From an uncultured virus (IMG/VR IMGVR_UViG_3300012277_000001) (lineage: Duplodnaviria; Heunggongvirae; Uroviricota; Caudoviricetes), in the IMG/VR virus record IMGVR_UViG_3300012277_000001, positions 186,001-250,000 of that record: a DNA stretch of 64,000 bases; one strand, given 5' to 3'. Made by a program: the position numbers and the translations under genes. The notes beneath the pieces were generated by a model. It was not told the origin of the DNA, ran no database searches, and saw only the letters and a program-made list of their open reading frames with translations. Positions 51 through 48,972 of this stretch are shown here, one piece after another; position 1 is the first letter of the stretch; each line of letters starts with the position of its first letter.

Positions 51-638
51 ATGAATTTCCCTACCTACAAATGCCACAAAGAAGTCCAAGCGTTCAAAAT
101 CCATACGATCACCGCACAGGCCCTCGGCACCGCTGAAGGCAATGTCGTGCAACCTGAAATGGTTGCGGTAGGCACCAACGAAGATGGTTCGCCACGACTG
201 CTTCCATCTGCGCAGAAAACCGAATACGTTCTCACCGACGAAACCGGCGAATTCTCGGTCGTGGTCAGTGAAGATTTCGTGGTCAAACACAACGTCTACT
301 CCGAAGGCTATTTCGTGCGTTACTCGGATGGTTATCAGTCGTTCAGTCCGAAAGAAGCTTTCGAAGAAGGCTACACGGTTTCCGAAGAGAAATCGGTGAT
401 TGTGATTCGCGTGGGCAACTCCCGTTGGACCCCGCGTATGGAAGAACTCGAACAAGTTATGGAACTGTTCGTAAACGCGACCACCGATCCAAAAGGCGCG
501 GTTGTAGCTGTAAACCACGGCATTCGTCTCGAAGCGGATCAAGTGTTGCGCACCGAAACCGAAAACATGTTCGTGTGTTCCGTTGCTGAAAAACGCGATT
601 TGAAAACCCTCCTGAAAGAGGCCAAAGAAAACCAATGA
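51..638 (+). CDS. Two-part hypothetical protein: N-terminal small phage beta-domain (YFVRYSDGYQSFSPKEAFEEGY type) plus a C-terminal segment that may resemble part of a portal protein
   Basis: GAGG RBS upstream; phage-like codon usage; motifs YKCHKEVQA and GYFVRYSDGYQSFSPKEAFEEGY. Confidence 0.6.
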   Translation: MNFPTYKCHKEVQAFKIHTITAQALGTAEGNVVQPEMVAVGTNEDGSPRLLPSAQKTEYVLTDETGEFSVVVSEDFVVKHNVYSEGYFVRYSDGYQSFSPKEAFEEGYTVSEEKSVIVIRVGNSRWTPRMEELEQVMELFVNATTDPKGAVVAVNHGIRLEADQVLRTETENMFVCSVAEKRDLKTLLKEAKENQ

Positions 639-8694: not shown

Positions 8695-10868
8695 TGGATC
8701 TTTCCACTATCGAAGCGGGTCTGCTGTACACCATCAAAGGCGAGCCGGGTAAAACCCTTACCTATTACGGTGATCAACTGCGCATGTCGCATACCCACCT
8801 GACCCGTGCGCTGGAAAAGCTGGTGCGTGCTGGGTATGTCGAGCGCAACGACAACAAGCTGACGATTTCTGATTCGTTCCAGAAAAAGGAAGCGGAAGCC
8901 GAGGAAGTAGCAGAGGTAGTGGAAATCCCTGAACCTGTTGTTGAGGTAAAGGTAGAACCTGTTAAAAGCATCGGTGAAAAGATTTTTGAACAGGCGGCCG
9001 AATCGGCACCGAAACACCCGCCCGTAACTTCCATGGAATTGCAAAAACTGCTGGCCGACGGTGTGCCGCGCACTGCACTGCAAATCGCAATGCACTTCGG
9101 TTACAACCGTGGCACCGCCGTTGCGCAAGTGCTGCGCAATATGTGCAACGCGAACGTGATGGTAAAAGACGGCCCGCTCTACACGCTGAAGCATGAGCCG
9201 AATACTGTTGCCGTGAAAGACGTTGCCAAAGCTGAGGCTGTACCTGACGAAAAAGCAGAACATGAATTGACCGACCTCGAATTGAGCGAAGCAATTCTGC
9301 GTATGCGTGAACCGTTCACCGCCGACCATTGCTTCTCGGTTATGCAGCGGCGCCACAAGCTGGATCGTGCACGGTTCCTAGACATTTTCGAGGCGGTGGC
9401 TTTCTCTGGTAAATTCCTAGCATGGGATGGCCAAGAATTCGTCGATCCTACTGTGGATTATTCACCGGCCCACACGTTCGTCGTGGCCAACGTTGTAGAC
9501 GCCAAAGAATCCATCAGCCTCATGGATTCCTACTGCCAGAAACTCAAAGGCCCTTACAAGCTTTTCGAGGTTGTGAGCACCACGCGCCTGCCTCCGTCTG
9601 AAGTGTTGGCTTACTTCGCAGACATGAATTACTTCACCCGCGATATCAACAATATCCACCACGGAAACTTCGCGCCGCATTACCCGAACCGCAAGGAACG
9701 GCAGGCGTTGAAAAAAGGCCCGGTGGCCAAGCCCTACGCCCGCCTCGAAACGCTGGATCAAGAAAGCGTCAAGCGCTTCATGCTGGGCGGTGTGGCGGTT
9801 GATACGTTCATCAAACGTTTCAACCTCGACCCTTCCGAAAAAGCCCGCCTCATTGAACTTCTGGTGGCCACCAATTTGGCTCGCCACGAACAGGAAAATG
9901 ATTGGATTTTCCTGCGTGATGATGTGGAAATGGAACGTGTCAAACTGGGCGATTACGACGAACCTGAAATCGAGTTGCCCGCCGACCATTTGTTGAACGA
10001 CGAATTGTCGGAAGTGGTGGTCGCCTGCATCGAAGAGGAAGAGCGGCTAAAAGTCGGCCCACTGACTGCACCGACCGGCCAGTCACCTCGCGTGTGGAGC
10101 GAACAGGAAAAAACCTCGTTAGTTGCAGCGCTGAAGGAAGTTGTGACAGCCGAAGAAACTGCCCCGCTTCCTGACCTGATGATTATGTCGCGTGAGTTCG
10201 CGGAAGATATCGGCATTCCGGTTGACGAATTGCCACACCAGAATGCGGACGGCACTTTCGAATTCCGTGCAGAAGATATTGGCAATCTCACTGCGATTCC
10301 TGATGGTATATTCAACCAGCTGGTCGATTCCTTTGTCGGTAGCATCCCCAGTGCGCCGGGCAACCCAGCCGTTATGTCCCAAGGCTTGTGTATCATGAGT
10401 CGGGAAGAGTACGAAAAGGTAAAAGCTGCGGGGGCCAACGTTGTGATGCGCGATGCAGTTCCTAACACTGACAACGTTTATGTTTGGATTGGCCCCGGCC
10501 AGCAAACGGAAGACGTTTTCTCTAACGGGGATATCGGCAACGATCATTTCATGGACGACGACGCAGATACTACCGCCTGCGAAGGCTGCGATCACCACTG
10601 CTGTATCTGCACCGAAGAAACCAACGATACCTGCGGCGATTGCGGAGCCGGTGCCAACGATGAATGTATCTGTAAACAATCAGTAGGCCCCGCTATGAAA
10701 TCACCGGGAGTGCCCGCAACAGAAGGCATGGAACATTTCAAAGGTTTCAGCCCTGATCCACGTTGGATGGTAATGTTGCAAATGCTGGAAGAGCGCCTGC
10801 GCTTCGAGCACCAGCCAACGACAGCCAACCAACTCAAAGAAATTCGTGAGTATTTGGAAACCCAATGA
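8691..10868 (+). CDS. Large hypothetical protein with N-terminal winged-helix-like repeats and a Cys-rich C-terminal region
   Basis: HTH-like segments (HLTRALEKLVRAGYVER; VAQVLRNMCNANVMVKDG); CEGCDHHCCIC...CGDC. Confidence 0.6.
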   Translation: MMDLSTIEAGLLYTIKGEPGKTLTYYGDQLRMSHTHLTRALEKLVRAGYVERNDNKLTISDSFQKKEAEAEEVAEVVEIPEPVVEVKVEPVKSIGEKIFEQAAESAPKHPPVTSMELQKLLADGVPRTALQIAMHFGYNRGTAVAQVLRNMCNANVMVKDGPLYTLKHEPNTVAVKDVAKAEAVPDEKAEHELTDLELSEAILRMREPFTADHCFSVMQRRHKLDRARFLDIFEAVAFSGKFLAWDGQEFVDPTVDYSPAHTFVVANVVDAKESISLMDSYCQKLKGPYKLFEVVSTTRLPPSEVLAYFADMNYFTRDINNIHHGNFAPHYPNRKERQALKKGPVAKPYARLETLDQESVKRFMLGGVAVDTFIKRFNLDPSEKARLIELLVATNLARHEQENDWIFLRDDVEMERVKLGDYDEPEIELPADHLLNDELSEVVVACIEEEERLKVGPLTAPTGQSPRVWSEQEKTSLVAALKEVVTAEETAPLPDLMIMSREFAEDIGIPVDELPHQNADGTFEFRAEDIGNLTAIPDGIFNQLVDSFVGSIPSAPGNPAVMSQGLCIMSREEYEKVKAAGANVVMRDAVPNTDNVYVWIGPGQQTEDVFSNGDIGNDHFMDDDADTTACEGCDHHCCICTEETNDTCGDCGAGANDECICKQSVGPAMKSPGVPATEGMEHFKGFSPDPRWMVMLQMLEERLRFEHQPTTANQLKEIREYLETQ

Positions 10869-13174
10869 TCAACATCACCAGCAGCCGTTTTAGCGGTATC
10901 GTCTCGTACAAAATGGGTGAATTTGATTTCACCAATAACTGTGGTTTGACCACGGTTACAGGACACAACCGTGACTCCCTGATTTCCAAGAATCAGAACA
11001 ACGGCGCTGGTAAATCCCTGCTGTTTTCGATGCTGGCCAACACTGCCTTCGAGCAGACGCCTATGGCCGACACGCGGAAGAAAAACCGCATTCACTCGAA
11101 AGGATCGTTCATCGAACTGACTGTGGAAAACTTGGGCCACAAGTGGACGATCCGACAGCAAGCAGGGGGTTATCAAATCTTCCGCGATGGGGAAGACCTC
11201 AAGGTCCGTGGCCAAGCCTCCCAGCGCGAACAGATTGCGAAAATTCTGCCGCTTACGCAGGAAGAGTGGTATTCGTACGTCCACCTGCAATCGCAGAAGA
11301 AACTTGAGTTCCTGTATGGCACACCGCGTGCCCGAATGACCTACATCAGCGAAGTGTGGCGCCTCGATCAATTCGATGTGCTGCGCCGCTACTTCGAAAA
11401 GAAAGTCGATGAAGTCAAGGTCGCACAAAACAAATCGGATGCCTTCAGCCACCAGCTGATGAACATCAATGATTCGTTGAACAAGAATGGCTGGAACAAG
11501 CAACTGGAAAAGGAACTGAAAGAGGCGAAGGAAATCGTCAAAACCCAGTCCAAGAAAGTTACGAAGCTTCAGACCCAGCGCCAAGAACTGAAGAGCCTCG
11601 CAAAGCAGGTCCAGTTCTACACCGAAACCAAAGACAAGCTGCAAAAGAACAAAAAGAAAATCCGCTTCGATCTATCCGAACTGAAGGAGCAGTACAAGCT
11701 GCACCAGCAGGTTGAGAAATACGAAGAGGAACGCGAAGAGTACGACCGCCGCACTAAGAAACTGGTGCGCAAGCTGGAAGAACTGGGCGATACGTCCGGG
11801 GGTGGCAAGGCCAGCAAAAAGAAAATCAAGGAACTACGGGCTGAATTGGCCAAGCTGGAAGAGGCGGACAAACGCCTTGAGAAGGTTCGCGATAAGCACG
11901 ACGCAGCTGTGCGCGAACTGGAAAACTTGGATGATCACGTGGACCCCGATCTGCGTAAGTTCTTGTCCAAGTGCAACAAAGAAAAAGTCGATCCGATGGA
12001 AGCGCTCAAAGAAGAGTATGCCGAAGCGAAATCGACAATGAAGCTGGCTGATCTGTTGCACGATCACGACGGTGGCAATTGCCCGACCTGTGCACAGAAA
12101 ATCAACCTGAAGGATTTGGAAAAATCCATTGCCAGTGCCAAGAAACGCCGTGGCAAAGCGCACTCGATGATTCACGCGCTGGAAATCCGAATTGCCAAGG
12201 AAGAGAACACGGCAATCATCAAGGATTTGCGCTTCGATGAACGTTCGTTCTACTCGGGTCGCAAGCGCATCAAGACCATTCGCGCCGAGTTGGAAAAACT
12301 CGAAGAGCAGATGGAAAACGCTGTCCGCTATGACGAACTCATGGCGCAGATGCAGGAACTGAAAAAACCGAAGGCGCCGAAGCGTAGCCCTGCCCTGTCG
12401 ATGGAAAAGATCGAACAGCAAAAGGAATACCACGACGAAGTTAAGCGCCTGAAGTTGCGCCTTGCTGAATTTGATGAAGTGCCCGAAGACGACAACATCC
12501 TGAAGCGCTTGGCTGAAGTCGAAGCGAAGCTGGAAAAGGTCGAAAAGAAATACTCCAAAGCCCACAAGGTTACGGTACGCTATAGCTCGCTGCGAGCAGA
12601 GTACAAACTGCTGACCAAGCAGCGCGAAGAAACCAGCCTGAAGATCGAAGAATTTGCACCACTGATCAAAAAGCTGAAGCGCTTCAAGATTCTGGCCAAA
12701 GCCTATTCGAACAAAGGCCTGAAACTGAATGCCATGCACGAAATCGTGTACGGGCTGGAACAGAACTACAACAAATACGCATCGCTGATTTTCGCAGAGC
12801 CATTCAAGTTCCGCGTAGAAGCCAAGGAAGACGGGGTACACATCACGGTTGACCGTGGCCAAGGTAACGTGTCTGACGTTCGTGAATTGTCGGGTGCTGA
12901 ATCCGATAGTTTCCGACTGCTGCACTTCCTCGCCTGCGTGATCATGGCCAAGGATGATCGCCGAGTTAACCTTGCGATTCTCGACGAACCGGACGCGCAC
13001 ATGGACCCGGCGACCACGCAGCTGTTTGTCGAACGTTACGTGCCATTCCTGCGCAAGCTGGTGCCTCATGTGTTCATCATCACGCAGAAGGGCAAGCACC
13101 TGCACCCGGAATGCTCTTACGTCACGGTTGAAAAATTCAAGGGGGTTTCAAATGTTCGATATGACGCTGCCTGA
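10865..13174 (+). CDS. sbcC: SbcC/Rad50-like ATPase (recombination nuclease subunit)
   Basis: Walker A NGAGKS, coiled coil with CPTC zinc hook, signature LSGAE, Walker B ILDEPD. Confidence 0.92.
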   Translation: MINITSSRFSGIVSYKMGEFDFTNNCGLTTVTGHNRDSLISKNQNNGAGKSLLFSMLANTAFEQTPMADTRKKNRIHSKGSFIELTVENLGHKWTIRQQAGGYQIFRDGEDLKVRGQASQREQIAKILPLTQEEWYSYVHLQSQKKLEFLYGTPRARMTYISEVWRLDQFDVLRRYFEKKVDEVKVAQNKSDAFSHQLMNINDSLNKNGWNKQLEKELKEAKEIVKTQSKKVTKLQTQRQELKSLAKQVQFYTETKDKLQKNKKKIRFDLSELKEQYKLHQQVEKYEEEREEYDRRTKKLVRKLEELGDTSGGGKASKKKIKELRAELAKLEEADKRLEKVRDKHDAAVRELENLDDHVDPDLRKFLSKCNKEKVDPMEALKEEYAEAKSTMKLADLLHDHDGGNCPTCAQKINLKDLEKSIASAKKRRGKAHSMIHALEIRIAKEENTAIIKDLRFDERSFYSGRKRIKTIRAELEKLEEQMENAVRYDELMAQMQELKKPKAPKRSPALSMEKIEQQKEYHDEVKRLKLRLAEFDEVPEDDNILKRLAEVEAKLEKVEKKYSKAHKVTVRYSSLRAEYKLLTKQREETSLKIEEFAPLIKKLKRFKILAKAYSNKGLKLNAMHEIVYGLEQNYNKYASLIFAEPFKFRVEAKEDGVHITVDRGQGNVSDVRELSGAESDSFRLLHFLACVIMAKDDRRVNLAILDEPDAHMDPATTQLFVERYVPFLRKLVPHVFIITQKGKHLHPECSYVTVEKFKGVSNVRYDAA

Positions 13175-15106: not shown

Positions 15107-15374
15107 AGATCGCCCAAACTACGAAAAACTCAAAAGCTGGTTGTACATCGTACGCACGCAAGCCGGTTTCCGCCAAGCAGTGAAAGAATATTCCGGTCCC
15201 GATTTCGATATGGGTTATCTGCGTGGCTTTCCACAATCTTATCCGGCACTCGTTATGTTTTCGGACGGCTACGAAGGCTATCACTTCACAGAAGCCAGCT
15301 GTATTCCGATCAACGAATTGACGGCCAAAATCGCTGAGCACGAAGCGAAGTACGGGAACAAAAACGATGCGTGA
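15093..15374 (+). CDS. Hypothetical protein
   Basis: GAGGA RBS. Confidence 0.55.
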   Translation: MSNGEDRPNYEKLKSWLYIVRTQAGFRQAVKEYSGPDFDMGYLRGFPQSYPALVMFSDGYEGYHFTEASCIPINELTAKIAEHEAKYGNKNDA

Positions 15375-15939
15375 TTACGAAGTGGTCTGTAACGAAACCA
15401 ACAACAGCCCGGAAGATATCGACAACAACGTGTTGAACATGGATATTGTTGGGCACTTTCCGCTGGTTGGTTGGAAAGAAACCGATATTTCCACCGGCAA
15501 ACTCGATGCGGGTCCGTTGGTGTTGCCGTCCCACACAGGGCCGCGTGGCTGGTATGGTCCGATTGGTAGCAAGAAATTCAAAATGCTGATGGTCATGCCT
15601 TCTGACTATCCGTGGATCTTGCCCGCCCGCCCATACAAGGAAGTCCGGGGCGATCAAGCTTTTGAAGGCGGCCCGAAAAACCCCGAAATCCAACTGACGG
15701 GTATGCTCGGGACCATTACGGGTGTGCAGATTCATACCGACTGCCGCGTCGGTGCAAAAACGCCACGTTACACGTACGCTATGAAGTACAACAAACGCGG
15801 GGTCGAGGTCACAGTTTTCGACCACGAAGAACAAGGTCATTTCTATATCTACCAATATCGTTCTGCACGCGAGGCCCGCACCGAGTTCAAGGCCCACGGC
15901 GTACAGCCAATCTTCCGCTACAAAGGTAAACGCAAATGA
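15367..15939 (+). CDS. Mosaic protein: tail-sheath C-terminal hairpin motif, capsid-like segment and basic module
   Basis: DYEVVCNETNNSPEDIDNNVLNMDI matches sheath DWETICDERNNKPADIANNDIILDF in this window. Confidence 0.6.
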   Translation: MRDYEVVCNETNNSPEDIDNNVLNMDIVGHFPLVGWKETDISTGKLDAGPLVLPSHTGPRGWYGPIGSKKFKMLMVMPSDYPWILPARPYKEVRGDQAFEGGPKNPEIQLTGMLGTITGVQIHTDCRVGAKTPRYTYAMKYNKRGVEVTVFDHEEQGHFYIYQYRSAREARTEFKAHGVQPIFRYKGKRK

Positions 15940-16214
15940 CGAATAAATCTGTATGGGAAGATTTGTTTAGCCCGGAAGAAGCGCCCGCGCTGCGCCTGCG
16001 TTCGGTCATGTTGCATCGCATCACTGACAAGGTGCTTAGCTGGGGCCAGAATCCAGAACTGATTAGCCAGAAGTTGGAAATCTCGGTTGAGCGTCTGCGC
16101 ACTATGCTGGCCGGACACCTCGACCTCTTCAGCTACGATGATTTGGTGGCCATGTTGCCGCGTGCAGGCCTCGATTTGGAAACCGTTATGCGGGAAGGGG
16201 TGCGCCGGTGCTGA
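15936..16214 (+). CDS. XRE-family HTH protein (HTH_37/HigA2-like)
   Basis: LRLRSVMLHRI...ISQKLEISVERLRTMLAGHLDLFSYDDLVAML. Confidence 0.65.
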   Translation: MTNKSVWEDLFSPEEAPALRLRSVMLHRITDKVLSWGQNPELISQKLEISVERLRTMLAGHLDLFSYDDLVAMLPRAGLDLETVMREGVRRC

Positions 16215-16618
16215 AACTCGCTGAAGGTTTTTCCAATTACGGCAAGCAGAGCACGCCGCAATCGTGGACCGTCAATTTCGACAACTTCCCAAGCGGCATG
16301 AAATATCCGCCGCTCGAAATCAAAGTTGCTGCCCCGGAACTACGCCCAGTACAGCTGGATTTTGCTGTCACCGAAACTTCGTCGGATCTGTGCGAAAATC
16401 CCGATATGCAGCTAGTGAAATGGTTGCAGGATTGGGCAACGTTGGCCAAATCCCATAACGACGCCCCACGCTTCACCGTCGATTCCGGGCGCAAAGGTGT
16501 GACCGTTACGTTTGCCAATGCACCGATGTTGCAGCTGTGGTTTCGTTCCCGTCGTCTGGCCAAAGTCTACGCCAAAAAGCACGACGTTTCCTTTTCGCAC
16601 ATGAGTCCCGCCCAATGA
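16208..16618 (+). CDS. Hypothetical protein: possible tail-tube-like N-terminus plus basic WFRSRRLA module
   Basis: QSWTVNFDNFPSG...VTET...LVKWLQDW; GVTVTF...WFRSRRLA. Confidence 0.5.
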   Translation: MLKLAEGFSNYGKQSTPQSWTVNFDNFPSGMKYPPLEIKVAAPELRPVQLDFAVTETSSDLCENPDMQLVKWLQDWATLAKSHNDAPRFTVDSGRKGVTVTFANAPMLQLWFRSRRLAKVYAKKHDVSFSHMSPAQ

Positions 16619-17241
16619 AGAAAATGTACATCGCAGTTTTGGACGAAGCGCCGGATTACATGGTGCCTACGCTGGTTGCCCACTCGGTGATGAACGCCCA
16701 CGATTTTTTCAAATCGCCCGGTCGTTCGGATGCACAGCGTGCGTGGTACTCTGACTGGAACATAAATTCGTTCCGCAAAGTCGTGGTGAAAGTTCCGGGC
16801 ACTGTGTTCGATAAAATCCACGCGACTTTGGATTGCTGGGCCGGTCACGAAAATACCATCTGCAACGGCGCTACTACCTGCCTTGTGGTGAATCCAGTCG
16901 AATCCGACGACGTACCGAAGCCGCTGCAATATGCACAGCTGTGGAAACCTGCACAACCCGCCCATATCACGGACGACTGGATTGCAGAAAATCTGCCCGC
17001 TCATATCAGTATGATGCTCGATAGCGTGCCCATCGGTCTAGATGCATCTATGCGTAGCACGATTCACCGATATGCTGAATTGATTTCTGCAATTCGCATT
17101 GGTTATTACCGCGTGTGCGAAGGCGATACGCTTTCGCATATTGGCATGTACACCGGCGCCGATTGGCGCGAACTTGCACGCATCAACAATCTGAAAAATC
17201 CTGACCTGATTTATCCGGGCCAGCTGATTAAACTTCGTTAA
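16615..17241 (+). CDS. Peptidyl-tRNA hydrolase 2 (Pth2)-like domain fused to a C-terminal LysM domain
   Basis: KMYIAV...VAHSV...W...SFRKVVVKV...TTCLVVNP; YRVCEGDTLSHIG...LARINNLKNPDLIYPGQLIKL. Confidence 0.65.
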   Translation: MKKMYIAVLDEAPDYMVPTLVAHSVMNAHDFFKSPGRSDAQRAWYSDWNINSFRKVVVKVPGTVFDKIHATLDCWAGHENTICNGATTCLVVNPVESDDVPKPLQYAQLWKPAQPAHITDDWIAENLPAHISMMLDSVPIGLDASMRSTIHRYAELISAIRIGYYRVCEGDTLSHIGMYTGADWRELARINNLKNPDLIYPGQLIKLR

Positions 17242-17250
17242 GGAATCCAG

Positions 17251-17577
17251 ATGAATGCAGTGACAGATGATATCCAAGAATCGGCTGACGAAATCGAACA
17301 GTTAGCCGAGCAGCTGGACCCGCTGGATCGTGATATTTTCTTCACGCGTTGTGCAATGAACAGTGACCACAAACTGGTCTATACCGAAATGTGGTTCGAA
17401 CGTGCGAACGCCCGCGACTTCGCGATTTACGCAGTGACGCAAGGTGATACGTTGCAGGAAATTCACGCACGTTTCCAGCTTTCTATCAGCGTGAAGCGAC
17501 TTGCATTCATCAACAACATTTCGGACCCGAGCAATCCACCTCTTGGCCTGCTGATTACCCTCAAGGATGTAAAATGA
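17251..17577 (+). CDS. LysM-domain protein
   Basis: YAVTQGDTLQEIHARF...LAFINNISDP. Confidence 0.65.
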   Translation: MNAVTDDIQESADEIEQLAEQLDPLDRDIFFTRCAMNSDHKLVYTEMWFERANARDFAIYAVTQGDTLQEIHARFQLSISVKRLAFINNISDPSNPPLGLLITLKDVK

Positions 17578-18047
17578 CCGACACTGAAGATTTGCTCACT
17601 GTTCCTAGCACCGTAAATGCACTGGATCGCATCGTACTGCGCCAGTCCGTACAGCATCTGCAACAGCAAATCGCAACTAGCCTTAGTGAAGCAGTGAGCG
17701 AAAGTTTGTTCGATAAAACTCCGCAAGAAATGATAGCCCGGTGCGATGCCATGCTGGCGGATATGCATGAGAAAAAACTGATTGGTGCCGACCTGAAGGC
17801 CATCGACTCGAAAATCTGCACGAAGTACGAAATCCACGACGACAAAAATCGCTGCCTCGTTCGCCTCATGGACGAAAACGATAGCGATATCAAATTCATC
17901 TGGTTACGCGGTCGTCGCAAGGCACACAAGATTGGTCGCCAGCATATCGGTTCCGTCTACCTTGCGTTCTCTGCTGTACCTGTCCCATTGAAACGGGTTG
18001 TCTTTCAAGTGCAGGTTGAGACAAAGCCACGGGAGTTCCGTCACTGA
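17574..18047 (+). CDS. Tail-sheath C-terminal-domain-like protein with an inserted basic module
   Basis: NALDRIVLR and PVPLKRVVF align by eye with sheath SGFQNVNVRR and PSIPAKRASL. Confidence 0.55.
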   Translation: MTDTEDLLTVPSTVNALDRIVLRQSVQHLQQQIATSLSEAVSESLFDKTPQEMIARCDAMLADMHEKKLIGADLKAIDSKICTKYEIHDDKNRCLVRLMDENDSDIKFIWLRGRRKAHKIGRQHIGSVYLAFSAVPVPLKRVVFQVQVETKPREFRH

Positions 18048-18358: not shown

Positions 18359-19405
18359 GTGGCAAAACAATTTGAAGCCGTTTTCACCTCGGACTGGCAT
18401 TTGACCGGTTTGAATAAACATTTCCAAGATGCAGATGATCGCATCCTGTCCGAAGGCCGGAAAATCTTTCAGTACGCGCTGAATAACGGCATCAAATACG
18501 TGATCATTCCGGGTGACATTTCCGATCATCCGTTCCTGCCTTACGACACGTACACCAGCCTGTTCAACCTGTTCTACGAATACGACAAACTGCTGACCAT
18601 TATCTACGTGGCAGGCAACCATGATTTCGAGAATATCGAAAACATGTCCATGAATTTCATGCGTCGTTTGTCCAAGACCAAAGCCTTCAAGAACCTGCGT
18701 ATTGTGCTCAAGCCTGAGCGTATCGAAATCGAAGGTGTGCCGGTCAACCTGCTGCCGTATCCATGCTTGAAAACTCTGTCGAAAAAGCAGGGTGCTCTGA
18801 ACGTTGCCCACGTTGAATATACCGGGGCCGTGGGCGACAATGGCCGTACGCTTAAAACCAAGCACGAACTGGAGTCGCACAAAAACGATTTCACCATTAG
18901 CGGGCACATTCACCAATATCAGTACATGGAAAAGAAACGTGCCATTTACTGCGGTAATCCGTTCCAAAAGAACTTCGGTGAAACCAGCGTTAAAGGGTTT
19001 GTGCATGCACGCGTAATTCTGAATGGCGACCGTGTGGATGTTGAGCACAAATTCGTCGAGAATAAACCCGCATTTAGCTTGCAGAACATTCACATTAAAG
19101 ACCTGAATGATTACAAAAAGCTGAAGCATGATTCGAATATCCGATACAAGCTGCATATTGATCCGGATATTCCGGTTCCTGCCGATATCATGCTGCAATA
19201 CCCGAATATCACGGGCGGTATTGTTTATACCGCTGGTAAAGGTAAAGACGTGGCAGAAATTGAAACGCTGAAGATTGAGCGTGCCGATATTGACCCTATG
19301 TTTGGGTTGGCGTCTTTCCTTGGGGCTGAAGGGTTGACCGAAAAAGAAATTCAAATGACGATTAAAGAGGCCAAAAAGGCCCAAAACGCCTGCGGTTTTT
19401 CCTGA
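18359..19405 (+). CDS. sbcD: SbcD/Mre11-like metallophosphoesterase nuclease
   Basis: TSDWH, PGDI, AGNHD and SGHIH motifs; AGGA RBS. Confidence 0.92.
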   Translation: MAKQFEAVFTSDWHLTGLNKHFQDADDRILSEGRKIFQYALNNGIKYVIIPGDISDHPFLPYDTYTSLFNLFYEYDKLLTIIYVAGNHDFENIENMSMNFMRRLSKTKAFKNLRIVLKPERIEIEGVPVNLLPYPCLKTLSKKQGALNVAHVEYTGAVGDNGRTLKTKHELESHKNDFTISGHIHQYQYMEKKRAIYCGNPFQKNFGETSVKGFVHARVILNGDRVDVEHKFVENKPAFSLQNIHIKDLNDYKKLKHDSNIRYKLHIDPDIPVPADIMLQYPNITGGIVYTAGKGKDVAEIETLKIERADIDPMFGLASFLGAEGLTEKEIQMTIKEAKKAQNACGFS

Positions 19406-19458: not shown

Positions 19459-19530
19459 TATTAGTTGGTCGGGCATCGCGGCGCTGCGATTAAGGCCTTC
19501 TACTTAAACCTTCAATCGAGGATCACCCCG

Positions 19531-20916
19531 ATGGTCATGAAAGCCGTCCAAAAGGACAAAAGCGTCGAGGCTGTTAAAGCTCGCAAAAAGGCGAAGGTTA
19601 GCCGTCGCCAGAACAAGCACAAAATCAACAAGGCTGCCAAACAGCGTTACGCGAAAATGACTCCGAAAGAGAAACTGGAGTTCCATGCGCGTCAACAGTT
19701 CACCAAGGCCATGCGCCACGGTGCAACCGAAGCTGAAGCCAAGAAAATCGTTGCTGCATGGAAAAAGCGCCGTAAACAGCGTGAATCCGGTTCCCATGCT
19801 GCTGCCCAGCGCCGCGATGCCCACGCCGCCCAGCGTCAAATCCGTGCGCAGCTGAGCCGCAAATCGGATGCCCTGAGCACCCAACACAAAAAAGCACTTC
19901 AGGCCATCAAAGCCAAAGGCAAAACTCCTGCTGCTCGCGCTCAACTGCGTGCCAAGGAAAAAGCCCGTTACGCCGACGCCCGCAAAGCGCTGGCCGCCGA
20001 GCGCATGAAGGCTACCGGTGCTCACAAAAAGGCTCTGAGCAAGATCAAAGCGAAAGGCAAATTCTCGCTGAAATCCATGATCGGCAACTACAAAGAGAAG
20101 CCGATTTCCAGCCAAGGTAAGCGTCTGGTGGATACCGCCAAGAAAGCTGCCCAAGCTGACGTAGCAAAAATCGCCAACAAGCATTTCGGCGGCGCCAAGA
20201 AAAAGGCTCCACGTAAACCGAAAGCTGCTGCCGCTCCTGCCGCTGCCCCGGCCACTCCTGCCGCCCCAGCCCAAAAGCTGAACAAAGACGGTAGCGTTGC
20301 CAAAAAACGCGGTCGCAAACCGAAGTCTGAAACCGCTGCTGCCCCGGCTGCGAAAGCACCTGCCAAGGCGCCGACCAAAAAGGCCGCTGCCAAGAAAGCC
20401 GAAGCCGCTCCTGCGCCGAAGCTGAACAAAGACGGTAGCGTTGCCAAAAAACGTGGTCGTAAGCCGAAGTCGGAAACTGCCGCCGCTCCTGCCGCTCCTG
20501 CTAAAAAGGCTCCGGCCAAAAAAGCAGCCGCGAAAAAAGCTGATGCTGCCCCGGCACAAAAGCTGAACAAGGATGGTAGCGTACCGAAGAAACGCGGTCG
20601 TAAGCCGAAGTCCGAAACCGCTGCTACCCCAGCTGCAAAAGCGCCAGCTAAGGCTCCAAAAGCCAAAGCAGCCAAAGCAGCCAAAGCACCGGCCAAGGCC
20701 CCAAAAGCCAAAGCCAACGTCGAAGCGAAAGAAAAACCAGCAGCCAAAAAGCCCGCTGGTAAAACCGCTCCGAAAAACGCTCCGGCCAAAAAGCAACCGG
20801 CTACCAAGCCAGCCGCTAAAGCCGCTGCGAAAAAACCGGTGAAACAACCTGCTTCGGCTGCGAAAGCACCGGGCAAGAAAACCGGCGGCGCCGTACCGAA
20901 AGCCAAATTCGGTTAA
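19531..20916 (+). CDS. Histone H1-like Lys/Ala/Pro-rich DNA-binding protein with three AT-hook-like repeats
   Basis: GAGGA RBS before ATG at 19531; extreme K/A content; 3 x KLNKDGSV.KKRGRKPKSETAA. Confidence 0.8.
   Translation: MVMKAVQKDKSVEAVKARKKAKVSRRQNKHKINKAAKQRYAKMTPKEKLEFHARQQFTKAMRHGATEAEAKKIVAAWKKRRKQRESGSHAAAQRRDAHAAQRQIRAQLSRKSDALSTQHKKALQAIKAKGKTPAARAQLRAKEKARYADARKALAAERMKATGAHKKALSKIKAKGKFSLKSMIGNYKEKPISSQGKRLVDTAKKAAQADVAKIANKHFGGAKKKAPRKPKAAAAPAAAPATPAAPAQKLNKDGSVAKKRGRKPKSETAAAPAAKAPAKAPTKKAAAKKAEAAPAPKLNKDGSVAKKRGRKPKSETAAAPAAPAKKAPAKKAAAKKADAAPAQKLNKDGSVPKKRGRKPKSETAATPAAKAPAKAPKAKAAKAAKAPAKAPKAKANVEAKEKPAAKKPAGKTAPKNAPAKKQPATKPAAKAAAKKPVKQPASAAKAPGKKTGGAVPKAKFG
20275..20630 (+). 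repeat. Three imperfect direct repeats (about 65-bp conserved core, about 143-bp period) inside the H1-like gene
   Basis: aagctgaacaa(a/g)ga(c/t)ggtagcgt...cg(c/t)ggtcg(c/t)aa(a/g)ccgaagtc at about 20275, 20419 and 20560. Confidence 0.9.
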
Positions 20917-47331: not shown

Positions 47332-48972
47332 ATGGCTTTTACCAACACCAGCGCTGGTGTTTATGATCAGGATCGCGACGTAAGTCAACGCGGTTCGACG
47401 GTCATTAGCTCCATTGCGGCAGCCGTAATCGAATCGCCACGCGGTTCGTCCACTGAATGGGTTTACGTGACGGACAAGCAGGATCTGCTTGAAAAATTCG
47501 GCACCAAAAACTATTCCAAATACGGGTACGGCATGCATTGCGCCGAACACGTTCTTACCCAAACCGCAATGTGGATCAAGCGCGTTGTTAACGCTGCTAC
47601 TTCCCGCACTGCTGGCGCCTACCTTTCGGTGGACGACACGACCGCGCTGGAGCCAGTTATCAAACTGGTTTGCTTCGATGACGGCACCAACAAACCGCAG
47701 GGGGTTTTGGGCGATCCGCTGAAGACCCTCGGTTTCCCCATTTCGGATGCGGGGGTTAAAAACGCCCTGCTGTACGTTTGCGCGAATTCCGCTGGTGAAT
47801 GGGCGCGTGCAATCAGCGTTCGTATTCGCCCGGCCAACCCCGAAGGCACCGAGGTTGGCGAGTTCAACGATCCGTACCATTTCTACCTCGACGTTTTCGT
47901 CAATTACACCGGTTCTTCCAGCGTGCCGGTTGAATCGTATCTTTGCAGCCGCAAATACGAAGTCGATGGCGAAGGGAACCAGATGTTTGTCGAGTCGCGT
48001 GTAAATGCATTCTCGAAATACATCAAGGTGAAAAACAACAGCCTTTGCCCGCAGGTTGAAATTCGCACCACCGCGTTCGAATACCTCGACGGCGGCGATG
48101 ACGGCGAGCGCGCTACCACCGCTGAAATCAACAACGCGTGGGAAGGCATCGACGACACCGACCAGTACGCGGTTCAATTGCTGGTTGCTTGCGGTTACGA
48201 ACACGAACAAACCGTACGCCGCATGAACGTTGTTGCCGCTAATCGTGGTGACGCGATTGCGATCAACGATTTGCCGTTCGAAATGCAGGAAGTTTCGCGT
48301 GCTGTTAACTGGCGCCGCAACATCCTCAACCTGAGTTCCAGCTACTCGGCACTGTACGGCCCGCGTGGTCAAATCACCGACGACGTTTCGGGCAAGAAAT
48401 TCTGGTGCCCGATTTCCGGTTTGGTTGCTGCACAGTATGCGTACACTGACCGCGTGCGTGCCTACTACTGGGCGCCTGCCGGTATCAACCGGGGTCAAGT
48501 GAAAGTCACCGATTTGTCGAAGAAATACAGCCTGCGTGAACGCAATGCGCTGGAACAATCGCAAATCAACTACGTGCGCCGGATTCCGGGGCGTGGTTAC
48601 GTGATCATGGAACAAATGACGCTGCAAAACTTCGCTTCTGGTTTCCAGAACGTGAACGTGCGCCGTCTGGTAAACGGCATCAAAGCCATGATTCGCCGTG
48701 CGTTCCTGCCATCGGTATTCAACCCTGCCGATGATTTCGAACGCAAACAGCTGAAAAACATCGTGGACGCTGAAGCCCGTTCGGTTAAGCAAGGTCGTGG
48801 TCTGTACGATTGGGAAACCATCTGCGACGAACGAAACAACAAACCGGCGGATATCGCGAACAACGATATCATTTTGGATTTCGTGATCGACCCGAGCATT
48901 CCGGCGAAGCGTGCATCCCTGACCGCCGATATCCGCAATTTCGGCTCTTCCATCGAATTCAAAGAGAACTAA
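47332..48972 (+). CDS. Contractile tail sheath protein
   Basis: SAGVYDQDRD, WAPAGINRG, NVNVRRL, CDERNN motifs of T4 gp18-like sheaths. Confidence 0.93.
   Translation: MAFTNTSAGVYDQDRDVSQRGSTVISSIAAAVIESPRGSSTEWVYVTDKQDLLEKFGTKNYSKYGYGMHCAEHVLTQTAMWIKRVVNAATSRTAGAYLSVDDTTALEPVIKLVCFDDGTNKPQGVLGDPLKTLGFPISDAGVKNALLYVCANSAGEWARAISVRIRPANPEGTEVGEFNDPYHFYLDVFVNYTGSSSVPVESYLCSRKYEVDGEGNQMFVESRVNAFSKYIKVKNNSLCPQVEIRTTAFEYLDGGDDGERATTAEINNAWEGIDDTDQYAVQLLVACGYEHEQTVRRMNVVAANRGDAIAINDLPFEMQEVSRAVNWRRNILNLSSSYSALYGPRGQITDDVSGKKFWCPISGLVAAQYAYTDRVRAYYWAPAGINRGQVKVTDLSKKYSLRERNALEQSQINYVRRIPGRGYVIMEQMTLQNFASGFQNVNVRRLVNGIKAMIRRAFLPSVFNPADDFERKQLKNIVDAEARSVKQGRGLYDWETICDERNNKPADIANNDIILDFVIDPSIPAKRASLTADIRNFGSSIEFKEN

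Follow-up and report, generated by a model that had tools for sequence, protein, structure and literature searches.

The window analysed in this study is a stretch of 64,000 nucleotides, bases 186001-250000 of a virus record of 307,943 bases (~308 kb; genome label G000), and its source is a giant soil-type jumbo phage of the Lu11/HRDY3-like kind. The closest named relatives are the Pseudomonas jumbo phages HRDY3 (SbcD 90% identical, capsid 95%) and Lu11 (SbcD 74%, capsid 85%). Between an sbcC-like and an sbcD-like gene lies a run of small genes (Table 1), one of which, encoding 190 aa, had been singled out in a preliminary description as a three-part mosaic of a sheath hairpin, a capsid-like segment and a shared basic module. 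The open reading frame is a real gene with the coordinates originally assigned to it: its ends overlap both neighbouring genes, and its codon usage fits its own frame only (score 0.39, against -0.27 to -0.96 in the other five frames). No dedicated promoter or terminator signal was found, there being 4 promoter-like sites where 5.8 are expected. Directly after sbcD, at 19465-20916, stands a Lys/Ala-rich, histone-H1-like repetitive protein (a label given by composition only), which relatives also possess.

Table 1 Genes and protein modules at the sbcC-sbcD locus, with the sheath counterpart of module S (window coordinates)
Feature	Position	Strand	Details
sbcC-like gene, left array border	10865..13174	+	Label inferred from position, which equals that of the annotated SbcC-like genes of Lu11 and HRDY3
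190-aa mosaic gene	15367..15939	+	Order: sheath hairpin (S), linker, capsid motif (M), shared domain (B)
S: tail-sheath C-domain beta-hairpin with conserved loop (residues 3-28)	15373..15450	+	Sheath profile matches, including E 7.6e-5
Linker (residues 29-106)	15451..15684	+	Family-conserved proline-rich box at ~77-88; low AlphaFold confidence
M: major-capsid motif (residues 107-125 = capsid 276-294)	15685..15741	+	Profile matches
B: three-strand-plus-helix domain (residues 133-177)	15763..15897	+	AlphaFold pLDDT 84-91; arginines conserved at helix start
HTH gene (PF13744)	15936..16214	+	Homologue fused to S in Lu11 and L009
Array member, tail-tube-like segment (weak) + B	16208..16618	+	Tube hhalign E 6.5e-4 and 1.8e-3; tube HMM E 0.035; B E 1.5e-15 (training row)
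Array member, sheath C-terminal domain carrying B as an insert where the sheath's hairpin loop would be	17574..18047	+	hhalign to sheath 93%, E 3.6e-7
sbcD-like gene, right array border	18359..19405	+	90% identity to HRDY3 SbcD-like protein
Counterpart of S in donor: hairpin residues 492-518 of tail sheath gene 47332-48972	48805..48885	+	

The presence of a sheath hairpin at the N-terminus, which had been placed at residues ~3-27, is borne out by three kinds of comparison. Residues 2-28 match residues 492-518 of the sheath encoded at 47332-48972 (E 0.0009, with 2046 genome ORFs searched), residues 2-27/28 match two PHROG sheath families (E 0.004 and 0.01), and a sheath-only motif profile, when searched against the genome, matches the 190-aa protein (E 2.3e-7) and nothing else besides the two sheaths. 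The phage has two tail sheath genes, that in the window and one at G000 254567-256159, as reported for PaBG. While the window sheath matches both PF17482 and PF04984, the 190-aa protein matches neither, and of the tail sheath (PF17482 Phage_sheath_1C; phrog_23, phrog_10581) it copies only the hairpin of the C-terminal domain, amounting to 26 residues, without the subtilisin-like and N-terminal sheath domains; the array member at 17574-18047, on the other hand, copies most of the C-terminal domain, with B taking the place of the loop. S shares 12/26 residues with the phage's own sheath, 13/26 with the sheath of JA29 and 63% over 27 residues with a cyanophage sheath, and is no nearer to the first than to the other two. 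Among six copies of S, pN is lower than pS in 14 of 15 pairs. Small stand-alone sheath-hairpin genes also occur away from sbcD, at L003:2833-3186 in Erwinia phage pEa_SNUABM_25 and L004:2863-3120 in Dickeya phage JA29 (PHROG sheath E 0.002 and 0.0008, respectively).

The capsid likeness originally proposed for residues 38-130 holds only for residues ~107-125, which correspond to residues 276-294 of the phage's own capsid protein. A comparison of residues 30-104 with 17 capsid proteins gave 0.5 bits, and with portal, tube and sheath no more than 1.6 bits, so that the capsid part spans ~20 residues and not 90, and the ~75 residues between the modules match none of the virion proteins compared (capsid, portal, tube, sheath). 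The single 190-aa sequence has no significant match to the phage's capsid protein (E 1.1). A search of 1.84 billion representatives returned 8 proteins at E <=0.001, the query included, and a profile search returned 12, giving a merged family of 14 members from which the protein of HRDY3 was left out. With the 14-member profile the phage's own capsid protein is the best non-self match (E 7.8e-5), and hhalign of the family profile against a capsid profile gives 95.5% (E 1.3e-8). The best match of the family profile is likewise a capsid-sized frame in 8/8 other genomes, 6 of which were confirmed as the capsid gene by position, with those of G003 and PaBG presumed to be so. In this phage the capsid gene lies just past the end of the window (G000 250660-251766; phrog_2522, E 1e-116), as the preliminary description had anticipated, and its product is related to gp27 of phage G (PDB 6WKK, E 1e-7).

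The residues retained in M are those that are invariant in the capsid: G112, G115, G119 and D125 occupy four invariant capsid columns. M and the phage's capsid are identical at 9/19 positions. From the alignment to phage G gp27 and the anatomy of the HK97 fold, we take M to lie in the A-domain. Compared with the HK97-fold capsid of Lu11/PaBG/Y3-type jumbo phages (phrog_2522; phage G gp27, 6WKK), M comprises ~20 of 368 residues, without the P-domain, spine helix or E-loop, and the segment appears unstructured in the AlphaFold model (pLDDT ~51-57, 14-row alignment). A second capsid-like patch at the N-terminus of the family (capsid 339-348) reached E 0.075, and we make no claim for it. Two further genes have capsid-motif-like segments. 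The first, at G000 111962-112657 (L008:1463-2155; 231 aa), has two such repeats (family profile E 0.013-0.035), is missed by the donor-only motif profile and has no PHROG or Pfam match; the second, Lu11_0129A (L072:2766-2963; 65 aa), has a capsid-motif-like start (E 0.015) and is located behind an annotated middle/late promoter.

The C-terminal module B is shared with neighbouring genes, as had been suggested, at the level of profiles, while the words by which it was originally recognised (GVEVTV...YRSAREA) occur once only in the window. It is basic only in part: residues 135-176, the folded core, contain 7 K/R and 6 D/E, and the tail accounts for the net charge. AlphaFold predicts a confident fold for the 190-aa protein at residues 135-176 only, as three strands and a helix, and the same element also folds within the predicted model of the 17574-18047 protein. 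B is shared with the 16208-16618 protein (hhalign E 1e-4) and more weakly with that of 17574-18047, and it joins the array families by profile at E 5e-5 to 2e-3, with values of 0.03 or worse to the sheath-domain family. A leave-family-out B profile containing no rows from the window recovers residues 133-177 at E 0.006, rank 4 of 2046 ORFs, below two neighbours and one probably chance match. There are three clear copies of B in the genome, all within the sbcC-sbcD interval. The invariant columns of the B alignment are circular, because its rows were chosen by pattern.

Judged by its sequence, B matches no named family. The possibility that it is itself a fragment of one of the virion proteins (capsid, tube, sheath or portal) was rejected (E 0.21 or worse; 0.48 against capsid), and the hhalign capsid match continues into its second strand. 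Sequence searches of the PDB with family and B profiles gave no match (for B, none under E 0.19), and a fold search with the query model gave no clear match (best Z 4.7, best Foldseek E 0.018). The model of B has a strand-strand-strand-helix order identical to that of the DUF1508/YegP-like and AP2/GCC-box beta3-alpha folds, yet the scores do not rise above background (Foldseek E 0.018; Z 3-4.5, with AP2-type DNA-binding folds weak at Z ~4) and there is no sequence match; overall, Z does not exceed 5.4 and is equalled by unrelated folds. For the 17574-18047 model, the tail and injection-system structures 9khy, 7b5h and 9gb1 align over most of the chain at Z 4.0-4.2, again tied with unrelated folds. 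Residues 100-190 retrieved small capsid-labelled clusters from the ESM Atlas (0.94-0.95), which we dropped as evidence since B alone gave the same clusters; the short ones could be contig-edge fragments.

The three-part mosaic originally proposed is real, and no single known domain covers the chain, as a Pfam search of the protein found no family and PHROG matches are confined to residues 2-27. Single-sequence searches found no full-length relative. That this mosaic reflects chance motif matches or a chimera of the genome assembly is extremely improbable. Such an origin would fit the non-significant single-sequence scores of M and the finding that no other genome was seen to have exactly the order S-M-B with the hairpin intact, but the best of 100 column-shuffled profiles scores 10.4 bits where the real profile scores 24.1, HRDY3 shares 81% DNA identity over residues 5-38, P0002 is 50% identical over residues 34-188, and S, M and B occur in one chain in both HRDY3 and L013. 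Chance matching as the source of S and M is refuted.

The gene is, moreover, no one-off fusion: its capsid-motif-plus-B core belongs to a conserved family of 14 proteins, and the gene itself is one member of a shuffled array. We compared 10 sbcC-sbcD intervals (this genome, HRDY3, Lu11, L005, L006, L009, L013 and G001-G003), which together hold 183 plus-strand ORFs of at least 45 aa. A donor-only capsid motif profile matched exactly one ORF in each interval (10/10), and the corresponding profiles for sheath hairpin, portal and tube matched 6, 4 and 1 (E 0.14) of the 183 ORFs, while reversed ORFs gave 0/183 with all four, the motif windows and family groupings having been fixed after the first matches were seen. 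Full-length donor profiles agree, with 1-3 matches each in the reversed controls and none better than E 0.09. In a profile-profile matrix the intended pairs along the diagonal have E 1e-8 to 2e-3, and the other displayed pairs E 0.024 or worse. The portal fragment matches PHROG at E 0.03-0.05 (38,880 families) and hhalign at E 6e-6, and P0027, a homologue of the 17574-18047 protein, matches PF17482 at E 1e-5. Tube-like members have no PHROG tube match and reach only E 0.14 with the tube motif profile, and so are kept as weak.

Writing P for the portal fragment, the order is S-M-B here, S-P-B-M in HRDY3 and L013, S-M'-HTH in Lu11 and S-HTH in L009; G001 has S alone together with P-M', G002 has M'-B and G003 a tube-like (by eye)-B-M, while L005, L006 and L009 contain M-B, P-B, tube-B and sheath-domain[B]. 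S is mobile: the positional orthologues of HRDY3 and L013 begin with it, Lu11 and L009 have it joined to an HTH, and in G001 it stands alone as a 61-aa gene with its loop intact. PaBG has a sheath-domain[B] gene with a B-like neighbour at another locus, and Y3, NCTB and JA29 have no match to the sheath-domain-plus-B gene (2/5 records matched). In the same PaBG cluster (L071), PaBG_00048, 00050 and 00051 are, in turn, sheath-domain[B], B-like with a tube-like start (by eye) and weakly sheath-like (E 0.19). In three further B-bearing genes (L005:4250-4564, L006:4238-4552 and L060:9037-9447) the N-terminal partner has no capsid, portal, sheath or tube match, and may copy another virion protein. 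Outside the array, the window also encodes a further portal fragment without B at 51-638 (plus strand, 195 aa), residues 114-160 of which match phrog_16240, a portal family, at E 3.4e-7 and the portal profile of the clade at E 2e-7. Within the array, at 16537-17241, a PTH2-like segment (E 0.02) is fused to LysM and followed by a second LysM gene at 17251-17577; L005 and L006 have a separate gene for each of the PTH2-like and LysM parts. No recombination repeat was found at the module joints in the window, and the sole relevant repeats in L009 and L005 are the coding sequence of B itself.

These comparisons show that the array genes consist of conserved patches of virion proteins from this phage group (capsid, sheath, portal and, probably, tube), joined in varying orders to B and sometimes to an HTH. 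They are also shown to be kept by purifying selection, with dN/dS of 0.13-0.34 in 8/10 gene pairs and the other two saturated; pairs involving the query were saturated and excluded. An explanation that requires no mimicry is that old duplications of virion genes were co-opted and kept only as folding or spacing elements for B proteins. We regard this as rather improbable. Frequent fusion and fission do separate the array genomes, M is degenerate in five of them (E 0.011-0.061 with the donor-only capsid motif profile), whole-gene dN/dS does not tell which surface is selected, and growth by duplication is common in jumbo-phage genomes (PMC13282480). However, the stand-alone S gene of G001 retains its loop, M persists beside four kinds of neighbour with a conservation about equal to that of B (0.63 and 0.66 mean majority), and four virion donors beside one domain are hard to reach by drift.

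We infer that the array proteins are not parts of the virion, since neither a shell nor a sheath could be built from such small fragments, and to that extent the original remark that this is unlikely to be a normal structural gene was sound. Head and tail sequence in one chain might nonetheless be expected of a minor virion protein that bridges or decorates head and tail. This is highly improbable, given that the gene has replication and recombination genes around it and is separated by ~31 kb from the closest sheath gene and by 49 kb from that of the capsid, that the architecture is not kept in close relatives, and that the PaBG homologue, gp50, is absent from the 14 virion proteins identified by a low-sensitivity gel in Table 1 of PMC7412058.

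Our preferred reading, to which we attach a probability of roughly 40%, is that the array proteins may stay outside the virion and serve as baits for host sensors that recognise conserved virion folds. The array would then be a modular set of virion-surface mimics made in the infected cell, of which the 190-aa protein is one member. Each fragment would bind the host factor that recognises the corresponding conserved virion patch, most plausibly an anti-phage sensor, and B would act as a common handle that stabilises the bait or keeps the bound sensor from activating. Shuffling would place several baits on each small protein, with the 190-aa protein carrying a sheath bait and a capsid bait. Capsid, portal and tail tube have all been documented as triggers, and binding to the A-domain of the capsid is known for three Avs families, Avs7, Avs8 and Avs10 (10.64898/2026.01.04.697583). 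A precedent for jamming a sensor with a mimic of its trigger is DSAD1, a phage protein that mimics the tail tube on DSR2 and inhibits it (PMC10973363). DSAD1 is one protein directed at one sensor, whereas the array takes pieces from the sequences of several virion proteins and shuffles them around one common domain; no likeness to DSAD1 surfaced in our searches.

Several observations weigh against baits. In the same study, recognition by Avs sensors depends on shape complementarity over a large area (3,700 square angstroms in the case of Avs7), and the sheath is listed only as a possible target (10.64898/2026.01.04.697583). A 20-residue motif is unlikely to supply such an extended surface, M appears unstructured in the predicted model, and a bait could itself trigger the sensor instead. 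Additionally, the choice of conserved patches may partly be an ascertainment effect, as profile searches detect such patches best.

A role linked to nucleic acid would fit the joining of S to an HTH, and the faint resemblance of B to AP2-type folds, equally well, and it is possible, if doubtful, that the array encodes assembly-coupled regulators or blockers. The fragments would in that case copy the surfaces by which subunits touch and so attach to chaperones or assembly intermediates, whether these belong to the phage or to others infecting the same cell, and B or the HTH would bind nucleic acid or a common partner, thereby tuning subunit supply or poisoning a competitor's assembly. In favour of this, the HTH joined to S in Lu11 and L009 is of the Cro/XRE type, B has conserved arginines in a beta3-alpha fold loosely like the AP2 and DUF1508 domains, and capsomer contacts are formed by the A-domain (10.64898/2026.01.04.697583). 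Satellites, moreover, block phage assembly through small proteins that bind conserved assembly machinery, as PLE Gpi does on terminase; Gpi is satellite-encoded and is not described as a virion-gene fragment in that report (10.1101/2024.04.22.590561), whereas the array holds own-virion fragments in a lytic-type jumbo phage. Against such a role, the fragments resemble the corresponding proteins of the phage only distantly (12/26 residues identical for S, 9/19 for M), with S as close to the sheaths of JA29 and a cyanophage as to that of the phage, the module content varies sharply among close relatives, unlike that of a core regulator, and the fold likeness of B is at background level.

A more specific form of the bait reading, in which the sbcC-sbcD array would be a combinatorial decoy library against bacterial pattern-recognition immunity with capsid, portal, sheath and tube baits recombined onto one shared effector domain, is tentative, and we consider it less probable than the general form. 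In the largely open-access main texts covered, we found no description of such genes and no mention of HRDY3, and no library family describes them either. That relatives combine the same pieces in other orders points to an undescribed system of virion-fragment mimics.

The virion proteins that bacterial sensors recognise are conserved and hard for a phage to alter, and the route by which phages escape such sensing is largely an open question. If the array proteins are indeed baits, those kept would record the virion patches sensed by hosts, including a sheath sensor not yet described, and the retained sheath hairpin predicts a sheath-binding partner. The array offers named, small and clonable candidates, and both the decoy and the assembly-control ideas are directly testable, because these selected and shuffled genes have homologues in the cultured phages HRDY3, Lu11 and PaBG. 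Short genes of jumbo phages that are annotated as 'capsid' or 'sheath' may be mimics of this kind, and even without a decoy role the array is a clear case of new genes arising from pieces of virion genes.
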